Source: an uncultured archaeon (GTDB lineage Archaea > Asgardarchaeota > Thorarchaeia > Thorarchaeales > Thorarchaeaceae). From it: a stretch of 32,000 nt of DNA. How positions within the stretch are numbered: the first letter of the stretch is position 1; every line of letters begins with the position of its first letter. Positions 16,464-25,452 of the stretch are shown here, in pieces. A program made the position numbers and the translations under genes. The stretch is taken from the NCBI GenBank assembly GCA_964648855.1, contig CAZYLT010000004.1, positions 49,532-81,531 on the forward strand, written 5' to 3'. The notes beneath the pieces are model-generated. The model saw only the letters and a list, made by a program, of their open reading frames with translations, did not search any database and was not told the DNA's origin.

Positions 16464-16686
16464 CAAGTCGCCGCAGTCCGAAGCGAGTCTTCTCCAAACG
16501 TTCAGCAAATAAGGCTTTCCCAAAGGTCGGCTCTGTGTGATAAGTCGGGAGAGATGATCCCTTTCAGTCTTAAGAAGCGTTGGTGCATTTGGGATTCTGA
16601 CATTATGTGTCATAAATGGATACAATCATCATGTTTGGATTGACTTTTCACACGGGGCTCCAAAGGTCAGCTCCAATATTTACTGC

Positions 16687-16887
16687 TTATGGCACAGCTT
16701 CACCAAAGATGCTCCAGCTTTCCTCTAGCATCTCTACTAGAACACTTACGACATCTTGTGCCCAACCTGTAGCTTGAAGAATTACACCTATAACAATAGA
16801 AATAGTGACAATCGCTAGACCCAACAAGAGACTCTCTTCAACCAGAGGTCCGCCATTTTGATTTTCAATCAGCTTGGTTGAAACCAT
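16687..16887 (-). CDS. Flp/Tad-like small pilin with class III signal peptide
   Basis: NQNG|GPLVEESLLLGLAIVTISIVIGVI: Gly at -1, Glu at +5, hydrophobic helix, no globular head. Lies downstream of the TadA-like ATPase. Confidence 0.7.
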   Translation of the reverse strand: MVSTKLIENQNGGPLVEESLLLGLAIVTISIVIGVILQATGWAQDVVSVLVEMLEESWSIFGEAVP

Positions 16888-23938: not shown

Positions 23939-24039
23939 GCGGCCGTGGTCTAGTTTGGTTAGGACGGAAGCTTCCCAAGCTTCCAACCCGAGTCAATTCA
24001 TCACAAATTGCGGGACTTCAAATCCCGGCGGCCGCACCA
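23939..24039 (+). tRNA. tRNA-Gly(CCC) with a 24-nt intron at 53/54 (intron 23993-24016), encoded CCA
   Basis: Acceptor GCGGCCG/CGGCCGC, anticodon arm GAAGC-TTCCCAA-GCTTC. Splice motif CCCG AG|T CAATT..AATTG CGGG AC|T. Confidence 0.93.
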
Positions 24040-24088
24040 CATTATCTTCATACAAGGAAACTTAAGGGCTATAGCTGCATATTTTCAC

Positions 24089-24160
24089 GGCGTGCGATGA
24101 TGGTAATGACCCCACTGAGTCCTTTGTGACAATGATGTGGATCTTGAGTTCTGAGCCGCC
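24089..24160 (+). ncRNA. Box C/D methylation guide sRNA; D guide predicted to target C34 of tRNA-Leu(CAA)
   Basis: C box ATGATGG 24097-24103, D' CTGA 24115-24118, C' ATGATGT 24132-24138, D CTGA 24151-24154, terminal stem GGCG/CGCC, upstream AGGAAA-CTTAAG promoter-like motif. Confidence 0.85.
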
Positions 24161-24258
24161 ACCAATACTTTCACCCACCTCTACCACTAATGTTCAATTA
24201 ACCGAACAAACAAGCAAGCCTTTTTATGTTAATGCACATCACAATCTCGTGGTTTCTG

Positions 24259-25452
24259 ATGCCGCGTGACTATGTTGAAGACGAACTCGGGAAGACTAGC
24301 GTATTCAAATCCGAGAAATATCTGTCAATAGATTATGTACCCGAGAATCTACCTCATAGAGAAACAGAATTGAGAACACTGGCTCAAAGTTTCAAAACAA
24401 TGATTGTTTCTCCTGGACAAACAAGTCAGAAATTCATCATCCAAGGGCCCGTTGGGACAGGAAAGACTGCAGTCACAAAGAGATTTTCTGAGCAATTAGT
24501 TCAAGCTGCAGCAAGGAGAAAAATAAGACTACGTAAAATACACATCAATTGTAGAGTCAATAAGAGTGAGTATCTTGTATATCTTAAAATTCTTCGGTCA
24601 TTCAAACCCAATTTTCCCCGTCGAGGGCATTCTCCTGAAGAAGTTCTTCAAATGATTATAGAAGTACTTGATGCTGAGGATCGATATCTTTTACTGATTC
24701 TGGACGAACTTGATTACTTCATTAAGCAAAAGGGCGTAGACATAATATACAATCTGACTCGCTTAATGGATGATCGATTAAATGCACCCCAACGACTCTC
24801 GATTATTGGTATCGGTCGAAAAATTCCCTTAGACGATAGTGTTTTTGATTCCAGTACATTGAGTACATTGCAACGCAATGTGCTATATTTTGAGAAATAC
24901 ACCTCACGCGCACTGAGGGATATTCTCTCTGAGAGAATCAAGATGGCTTTTGAACCTAGAGCAATTATGGAGGAAACGATTAATGTTATTTGTGACATTG
25001 CCTCAAACAGGGGGGATGCACGGTATGCTATCGAGCTCCTTTGGCGCGGTGGGAAACAAGCTGACGCAGTCGGTTCTGATGTCATAATCCCCGATTATGT
25101 TCGAAAGGCTAAAGCTGACACTCACCCAGAACTACGAGAAGAGGTTTTCGAAACACTTCCTTTACATAATAAATTGTTACTATTGGCTGCCGCACGCCAG
25201 TTGAAAGAGGCAAGAAGTGCATATGTGACGATTGGGGAGGTTGAGGAGATGTATCAATCAGTTTGCGAAGAGTTTGGAAAACAATCTAGAGCACATACAC
25301 AGATTTGGGAATGGGTTCAAGACTTGACTGCTCATGGCGTAATAGACGCCAGGAAATCAGGAGTAGGTCAAAGGGGTCAGACAACTCTTATCGGGTTATC
25401 AGACGTTCCTGCGGATTTACTTGAACAATTCTTGGTCAGTCTTTTGGAGTAG
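24259..25452 (+). CDS. cdc6: Orc1/Cdc6 replication initiator family protein; likely start ATG at 24259
   Basis: VF....L..DYVP..LPHRE, GPVGTGKT, HINC, LILDELD, GDARYAIELL, C-terminal wHTH with G.RGQTT.I. Confidence 0.96.
   Translation: MPRDYVEDELGKTSVFKSEKYLSIDYVPENLPHRETELRTLAQSFKTMIVSPGQTSQKFIIQGPVGTGKTAVTKRFSEQLVQAAARRKIRLRKIHINCRVNKSEYLVYLKILRSFKPNFPRRGHSPEEVLQMIIEVLDAEDRYLLLILDELDYFIKQKGVDIIYNLTRLMDDRLNAPQRLSIIGIGRKIPLDDSVFDSSTLSTLQRNVLYFEKYTSRALRDILSERIKMAFEPRAIMEETINVICDIASNRGDARYAIELLWRGGKQADAVGSDVIIPDYVRKAKADTHPELREEVFETLPLHNKLLLLAAARQLKEARSAYVTIGEVEEMYQSVCEEFGKQSRAHTQIWEWVQDLTAHGVIDARKSGVGQRGQTTLIGLSDVPADLLEQFLVSLLE

Follow-up and report, generated by a model that had tools for sequence, protein, structure and literature searches.

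A conserved box C/D sRNA of Asgard archaea with guides complementary to the anticodon loop of tRNA-Leu(CAA) and to tRNA introns

The 32,000-nucleotide stretch of DNA analyzed here (the window) derives from an uncultured archaeon of the Thorarchaeaceae and carries, between the genes of a tRNA-Gly(CCC) and of orc1/cdc6, an element at positions 24089-24160 of the plus strand that is almost certainly a box C/D small RNA (sRNA). Its two guides are complementary to different RNAs. The D guide reads antisense against the anticodon loop of tRNA-Leu(CAA), in which the wobble base C34 falls opposite the fifth guide nucleotide upstream of box D (D+5). The D' guide is complementary to GGGGUCA(U), a motif in the introns of pre-tRNA-Met(CAU) and pre-tRNA-Leu(UAA). 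Guide and intron motif co-occur and co-vary across families of Asgard archaea. Protein binding, methylation, the choice of substrate tRNAs and the role of the contact with the introns are predicted from these features. The explanation that on balance we favor is that of a dual-guide RNA that uses the introns of its less well matched substrates as docking sites.

The sequence-only reading had described full C, D', C' and D boxes with a terminal stem between tRNA-Gly and cdc6, and these were confirmed on the plus strand, on which all parts named here lie. The 5' strand of the terminal stem (24089-24095) pairs with the 3' strand (24155-24160) through six base pairs (bp) that leave U24093 bulged; this stem covaries. 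Box C (AUGAUGG, 24097-24103), which matches RUGAUGA at six of seven positions, is followed by the D' guide of 11 nucleotides (nt) (24104-24114) with the conserved core AUGACCCC at 24106-24113, and by box D' (CUGA, 24115-24118). An internal stem-loop (24119-24130), in which four of four pairs show double changes, closes the C'/D' kink-turn and leads to box C' (AUGAUGU, 24132-24138; RAUGAU(A) in relatives), the 12-nt D guide (24139-24150) and box D (CUGA, 24151-24154). CUGA is kept at both D and D' only in the source genus; most relatives have degenerate boxes, NNGA at D and AUGA at D', in which the GA is invariant. A kink-turn is predicted in which G24096, A and U24098 form a 3-nt bulge and G24099 and A24100 face A24154 and G24153. 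Boxes C and C' of the window sRNA each depart from the consensus at the last position. The element thus has the sequence features of an archaeal C/D RNA: terminal C and D boxes with a stem, a D' and a C' box in the interior, guide spacers near 12 nt and a target at D+5. In an Rfam scan of the locus at the gathering threshold, only a tRNA passed and no CD-box family; the curated families SNORD103 (21.3), sR1 (16.7) and snoPyro_CD (16.1) remained below the gathering score of 45. At a permissive threshold, 8/8 weak matches on the element were to CD-box families on the plus strand, each well short of its cut-off.

A homolog of the sRNA was found in 88 of 89 related loci. BLAST with the region yielded homologs at E <=1.2e-8 in 30 of 36 genomes of the same family, and diverged copies were recovered by a pattern search in four of five further genomes. 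In an alignment of 63 distinct copies, TGACCCC of the D' guide and GATCTTGAGT of the D guide are invariant (63/63). The same holds for the GA in each of the four boxes, for the TGA of box C (columns 12-14, 63/63) and for that of box C' (columns 47-49); the guide flanks, the loop and the stems vary. In relatives the terminal stem comprises 7 bp, with 98.2% of the cells paired; its closing pair occurs as U-G, C-G and U-A, and double changes from G-C to A-U were also seen. The internal stem (3-4 bp) is paired in 92.1% of the cells. Changes on both sides occurred in eight of 13 stem pairs, and the observed values were reached by 0/500 shuffles and by no slid register. RNAalifold recovers the same two stems as the covariation analysis.

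Some genomes of genus g2 contain a second locus with the signature of both guides (G017:C124:7925-7967, G027:C18:10567-10609 and G185:C197:4816-4857). The locus in G185 is a near-duplicate of the sRNA; the copies in G017 and G027 are divergent and have GCGGA instead of box D'. The three loci are possibly paralogs. At three loci of other Asgard families (L222, L223 and L229 in G040, G060 and G043), the D guide is kept and the D' guides read CUAGCCC(C) or CCAGCCC. The CUAGCCC-type D' guides, which occur in families f5 and f8, were matched to no target.

A TATA-like promoter element, CTTAAGGG, lies upstream of the sRNA stem at 24061-24068 of the plus strand. Of 68 distinct upstream regions, 66 contain a TATA-like hexamer, from a motif set picked after the data had been viewed, whose start precedes the stem by 27-31 nt (mode -29). 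The element is also present in the seven loci that have no tRNA-Gly upstream, and the sRNA is thus most likely transcribed from a promoter of its own. The only RNA run with part of the stretch was a salt-lake metatranscriptome, in which a 212-nt contig covers 23947-24158 at 96% identity. It starts 8 nt inside tRNA-Gly and ends 2 nt short of the 3' end of the sRNA; where it departs from the window, it agrees with the same-genus relative. DNA runs in which the stretch had a small share are uninformative about habitat. Such contigs cannot reveal ends, strand or level and may stem from carried-over DNA, and this one also spans tRNA-Gly and the spacer. It could represent read-through of the tRNA-sRNA pair or DNA in the library; it is at most a weak hint of expression and, taken by itself, would point to read-through from tRNA-Gly and not to a separate sRNA promoter.

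The D guide very probably directs the formation of 2'-O-methylcytidine at position 34 (Cm34) of tRNA-Leu(CAA). This target had been predicted in the sequence-only reading by the D+5 rule, and it is supported by pairing with the spliced tRNA and by conservation. The tRNA-Leu(CAA) gene is located on the minus strand of contig C19 at about 16680-16830 (locus L041) and was found by a scan for CAA anticodon arms. ARAGORN and the Rfam tRNA scan missed it because two introns interrupt it: the D loop has one of about 30 nt, the anticodon arm another of about 26 nt. After splicing, the anticodon arm is ACGGA-CUCAAGA-UCCGU and the RNA reads GACUCAAGAUCCG. With positions 30-42 of the spliced tRNA, the D guide forms 11 contiguous Watson-Crick pairs with a G.U on both flanks, and C34 lies opposite guide base five, counted upstream from box D. 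The exact target string that the sequence-only reading had named was absent from the genome as DNA: in searches with the 13-mer and the 12-mer, the sole match was the sRNA's own antisense. The 13-mer is missing because an intron splits the gene just after GACTCAAGATC. In the spliced RNA the target does pair, with a G.U as the last pair because the RNA ends in ...CCG and not in ...CCA. Genome matches with one or two mismatches were dropped, as they lay in coding-like sequence. The tRNA-Leu(CAA) orthologs of relatives keep the same arm, and the D guide is kept as well. The D-loop intron of tRNA-Leu(CAA) is retained only by the same-genus relative.

Two further tRNAs fit the D guide less well. 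Duplex energies calculated with duplexfold were -19.6 kcal/mol on spliced and -17.2 kcal/mol on unspliced tRNA-Leu(CAA), -17.4 kcal/mol on spliced and -14.0 kcal/mol on unspliced tRNA-Leu(UAA), and -10.5 kcal/mol on tRNA-Met. On tRNA-Leu(UAA) the guide pairs in the same register with one G.U at position 34; on the elongator-type tRNA-Met(CAU), nine of 11 pairs form with C34 in register and two adjacent mismatches in the center. A scan of the source genome for guides dedicated to C34 of tRNA-Met or U34 of tRNA-Leu(UAA) yielded 12 and 6 loose matches, respectively, none convincing: they had no convincing C/D context and no more than eight matching guide bases. In genus g6 the D guide starts with A instead of G. 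In all three precursors this A finds a partner in the first base of the intron, but it has none in spliced tRNA-Leu(CAA), a small hint that the precursors may be the substrates.

For the D' guide the sequence-only reading had given no target. No conserved match was found in the rRNAs searched; the D' core is the complement of the intron motif of pre-tRNA-Met(CAU) and pre-tRNA-Leu(UAA), GGGGUCA(U). The source genome (G000) contains 100 GGGGTCAT sites, one of which is the antisense of the sRNA and three of which are inside tRNA introns, those of tRNA-Leu(UAA), elongator-type tRNA-Met(CAU) and tRNA-Gly(GCC). The D' guide would form duplexes of 8-9 bp with two tRNA introns of the source genome; in its pre-tRNA-Met the duplex is wholly intronic and lies 21 nt after ...CUCAUAAUC. 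Among tRNA-Leu(UAA) orthologs, 23/25 have GGGGTCA and 17 have GGGGTCAT, and the rest of the intron varies freely. The tRNA-Met orthologs contain GGGGTCA in 27/28 cases, after a variable, co-varying hairpin. The motif is an internal one, located past the anticodon-intron helix; this helix explains the AUGAGA-like 3' ends of the introns, which are separate from the motif. A scan for sites that resemble the D target and are followed by GGGGTCA yielded, in a tRNA context, tRNA-Leu(UAA) and tRNA-Met alone.

Two other candidates for the D' target were rejected. The match in the tRNA-Gly(GCC) intron (C11:893-1000, minus strand, L040) has GGGGTCAT in the source genome only; relatives have GCGGGGGTTTATCCC at that place or no intron, and some have an insertion further 3'. 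Since it is not conserved, we take it to be due to chance or specific to the lineage. With rRNA, the exact 8-mer GGGGTCAT was absent from the genome's own 16S rRNA and was present once among the 23S rRNAs of six relatives (L033, genome G014), where it is not conserved. The assembly contains the 16S rRNA gene at C19:30672-32179 and no 23S rRNA, so that the search for an rRNA target is not exhaustive.

The distribution of both partners was determined in a sample of 201 Asgard genomes, grouped in families (f1, Thor, to which the source genome belongs; f3, f4, f7 and others). The sRNA signature was TGACCCC followed after 10-45 nt by GATCTTGAG; the Met-intron signature was ACTCATAATC, 0-60 nt, GGGGTCA; and the Leu(UAA)-intron signature was ACTTAAGATC, 0-40 nt, GGGGTCA. 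The sRNA signature occurs in 43/43 genomes of f1 and in the source genome, in 4/4 of f3, 1/2 of f4, 5/5 of f7, 3/3 of f13 and 6/6 of f19, and in none of the 21 genomes of f5 and the 40 of f9. Three families have stray matches, and the reversed control gave seven; the stray matches, in f12, f17, f22 and G029, were discarded as not sRNA-like. For the Met-intron signature the counts are 39/43 in f1 plus the source genome, 4/4 in f3, 0/2 in f4, 1/5 in f7, 3/3 in f13, 6/6 in f19 and none in the other families or in the reversed control. Every genome with the Met-intron signature has the sRNA signature too (54/54). The Leu(UAA)-intron signature is present in 31/43 genomes of f1 and in the source genome; it was found in 0/157 genomes outside f1 (f3 0/4, f4 0/2, f7 0/5, f13 0/3, f19 0/6) and in no reversed control. 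Loose patterns, CTCATAA...GGGGYYAR and CTTAAGA...GGGGYYAR, were abandoned, with as many matches as their reversed controls; only two of the matches were tRNA-Met introns, and a Leu-like match in G052 did not belong to a tRNA. BLAST of the source tRNA-Met against five non-Thor genomes found other tRNAs and no tRNA-Met.

Related genomes are not independent, and the positive families perhaps represent one clade; weight is therefore placed on compensatory changes and not on counts. In Thor, AUGACCCC faces GGGGUCAU. In 8/8 non-Thor genomes checked (f3, f7, f13 and f19), the sRNA has UCUGACCCC and faces GGGGUCAGA in the tRNA-Met intron, with 9-11 contiguous Watson-Crick pairs in each of the eight. 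The tenth pair differs on both partners between G042 (10 bp) and G071 (11 bp). Within Thor the evidence is mixed: in G015, UUGACCCC faces GGGGUCAA in both introns, but in G034, G007 and G019, GGGGUCAA faces AUGACCCC. The pairing between the D' guide and the introns is likely to be real. As a pairing it is well supported; the mechanism that follows is a proposal.

In the mechanism we propose, the dual-guide sRNA would assemble with L7Ae, Nop5 and fibrillarin into a 2'-O-methyltransferase ribonucleoprotein (RNP). The source genome encodes fibrillarin (284.8 bits) and Nop (230.4 bits) in adjoining genes as well as two L7Ae-family matches. The D guide would pair with the anticodon loop of tRNA-Leu(CAA) and bring C34 to the methylation position. 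The D' guide would base-pair with GGGGUCA(U) inside the unspliced introns of pre-tRNA-Met(CAU) and pre-tRNA-Leu(UAA) and not with a mature RNA. The intron motif would then serve for docking: it would tether the RNP to precursors with a loop that the D guide matches imperfectly, and one sRNA could in this way serve several tRNAs before splicing removes the tag. That docking is the purpose of the intron pairing is a tentative assumption. With equal reserve we suggest that, on unspliced pre-tRNA-Leu(UAA) and pre-tRNA-Met, this tether gives the RNP enough time for methylation of the wobble bases, which would mean that some Asgard tRNA introns have a function. Besides the altered first base of the D guide in g6, three observations fit docking. 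The tagged introns belong to the tRNAs with an imperfect fit to the D guide, tRNA-Leu(UAA) and tRNA-Met; the perfect target, tRNA-Leu(CAA), would need no tag. The motif lies 3' of the loop site, and the distance between them is kept, with 10-13 nt in 32 matches of tRNA-Leu(UAA) and 10-14 nt in 16 non-Thor matches of tRNA-Met; in Thor tRNA-Met it is longer and filled by the hairpin. Finally, the order of the loop site and the intron site on the pre-tRNA is antiparallel to that of the D and D' guides on the sRNA.

Several findings weigh against intron docking. The Thor duplex is short (7-9 bp), and its eighth position is unpaired in several genomes, such as G034, G007 and G019, in which GGGGTCAA faces ATGACCCC. 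Nine genomes have the sRNA and did not show the exact intron pattern (G014, G017, G026, G169, G050, G052, G087, G104 and G109). The families with both features may form one clade, and the co-occurrence may thus amount to few independent events. GGGGTCA was never present in the intron of tRNA-Leu(CAA) in the source genome and the relatives examined. The match in tRNA-Gly(GCC), which is not conserved, is a reminder that single matches can be due to chance. The D guide may match tRNA-Met too weakly even with the help of tethering. Lastly, the D+5 rule applied to the D' duplex points to an intronic G, and therefore the intron itself may simply be methylated, although this position agrees with docking too.

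The last point leads to the alternative that the two guides act independently, the D guide in making Cm34 on tRNA-Leu(CAA) and the D' guide in methylating the fourth G of GGGG, which occupies D'+5. Without aiding the D guide, such a methylation would mark or stabilize the intron or time its removal. The non-Thor duplexes of 9-11 bp, with canonical C and D' boxes, would be sufficient for a normal guide, and the poor fit of the D guide to tRNA-Met also agrees with separate action. However, methylation of an intron that is spliced out has no known function, and the tight distance between anticodon site and motif (10-14 nt or filled by a hairpin) would be needless. Moreover, the second motif-bearing intron in Thor is that of tRNA-Leu(UAA), exactly the loop that fits the D guide with a single G.U. 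We regard independent guides as rather unlikely. Still less likely is a role of the D' arm as a chaperone or checkpoint for the folding or splicing of pre-tRNA-Met and pre-tRNA-Leu(UAA), for which methylation would be irrelevant. It would agree with the location of the motif in the intron interior, beyond the anticodon-intron helix formed with the conserved AUGAGA-type 3' end. In several tRNA-Leu(UAA) introns, the UCAU part of the motif can pair with an upstream AUGA-like stretch, so that binding of the sRNA would remodel the intron. Nothing points specifically to an effect on splicing, however, and the other intron-containing tRNAs of the source genome (about 25 according to ARAGORN) must be spliced without the motif.

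Two explanations would dispense with the introns altogether. The true D' target might be a mature RNA, such as the 23S rRNA or another noncoding RNA, and the intron matches incidental. The absence of the 23S rRNA from the assembly, many tRNAs of which are hard to annotate, leaves some room for this idea, to which we attach very little probability: the genome's own 16S and the 23S rRNAs of six relatives together hold one exact GGGGTCAT, in a single genome, and an incidental match would not co-occur by family or co-vary. The reversed control for the intron pattern gave no match. That the element consists of chance box-like words in an intergenic spacer and encodes no functional RNA could be argued from the failure of any Rfam family to reach its gathering score and from the deviant last position of boxes C and C'. 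This view we consider refuted by the occurrence in 88/89 loci, the invariant guides, the co-varying stems and the promoter-like element at a fixed distance. Docking of the dual-guide RNP on the introns remains the explanation that we favor.

The predicted activity of the D guide is of a known kind and ordinary. The statement of the sequence-only reading that guide-directed Cm34 of tRNA-Leu(CAA) is known from Pyrococcus was borne out by the literature: in P. abyssi, sR47 uses its D guide to methylate tRNA-Leu(CAA) at C34 in vitro, on a substrate oligonucleotide that contains GACUCAAGAUCC (PMC3413156), and in P. furiosus C34 of tRNA-Leu(CAA) is among the predicted C/D targets (Wolff et al. 2020; PMC7668247). 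The window sRNA resembles sR47 in being a dual-box C/D sRNA with a D guide antisense to GACUCAAGAUCC and C34 at D+5. It differs in its phylum, in the score of 16.1 against the gathering score of 45 of snoPyro_CD, in the degenerate D and D' boxes (NNGA, AUGA) and the 7-bp terminal stem of most Thor copies, and in a second guide that pairs with tRNA introns; for sR47 this comparison extends to the description of the D guide alone.

Closer to the proposed use of the intron is sR-tMet of Haloferax volcanii, a box C/D RNA that acts on the intron-containing precursor of elongator tRNA-Met and concerns the wobble C34 (Joardar et al. 2011; PMC6601510, PMC4033218). Unlike in sR-tMet, the Asgard sRNA would contact the intron with the other (D') guide, at a site that is wholly intronic and 10 nt or more from the loop. 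In sR-tMet a single guide reportedly spans exon and intron around C34. This type of guide was not matched here, where the D guide pairs with exon bases and the first intron base and has two mismatches on tRNA-Met. In euryarchaeal pre-tRNA-Trp, the intron encodes a box C/D guide for methylation of C34 and U39 on precursors (PMC11408192, PMC4090602). Both systems link a tRNA intron to C/D-guided methylation of the anticodon arm on the precursor, but in pre-tRNA-Trp the intron is the guide, whereas here it is the bound partner and the guide is a separate gene with a promoter predicted to be its own. Human elongator tRNA-Met acquires Cm34 through the C/D RNAs SNORD97 and SCARNA97 (PMC6601510), in contrast to the Asgard sRNA without an intron contact. 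Several tRNA modifications of yeast need the intron (PMC4090602); they are performed by protein enzymes and not by guide RNPs. In eukaryotes, extra pairing between snoRNA and substrate outside the guide boosts methylation. In a literature search, no C/D guide that pairs inside a tRNA intron was described for Asgard archaea, nor, with supplementary files outside the search, any separate guide that reads an intron tag away from the modified base.

It has long been asked why tRNA genes in archaea and eukaryotes retain introns. According to a review, an essential intron-only modification had been identified neither in eukaryotes nor in archaea (PMC4090602). The co-occurrence and co-variation of a guide RNA and an intron motif across Asgard families turn the idea of the intron as a landing pad into a directly testable hypothesis. 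If correct, it would describe an RNA-guided, intron-dependent modification and a selective reason for keeping these introns, and it would give prokaryotes an equivalent of two eukaryotic phenomena, tRNA modifications that depend on an intron and accessory pairing by snoRNAs. Among Asgard archaea, which of all prokaryotes are most closely related to eukaryotes, the sRNA family is the first well-supported one of the box C/D type.

The window corresponds to contig C4:49532-81531 of the source assembly, which comprises 3.11 Mb in 62 contigs with 44.7% G+C. For this assembly ARAGORN also proposed tRNAs for selenocysteine and pyrrolysine and introns of several hundred to 2,255 nt, which look spurious and were left unused. 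The upstream neighbor of the sRNA, tRNA-Gly(CCC) (23939-24036, plus strand; Rfam tRNA, 41.5 bits), was not called by ARAGORN because an insertion of about 30 nt resides in its T arm. This is a non-canonical place, at which relatives have other insert sequences or no insert. The anticodon loop of tRNA-Gly(CCC) lies <=200 nt upstream of the sRNA in 61/68 distinct loci. The downstream neighbor is orc1/cdc6 (24226-25452, plus strand), an open reading frame of 408 amino acids. In 54 of 55 cdc6-anchored loci (L166-L220) the sRNA is directly upstream of cdc6; the one exception has no upstream sequence. Strongly conserved blocks are present in nearly all Thor loci in the spacer between sRNA and cdc6 (24161-24225 of the window). 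They include AATACTTTCGG..CCTCC directly 3' of the 3' stem of the sRNA, a near-palindromic block, GT.C.TTTAATCGTACA, and an CTTTTAAG element about 30 nt ahead of the cdc6 start. These blocks could be the cdc6 promoter together with an operator or an origin-type binding site.

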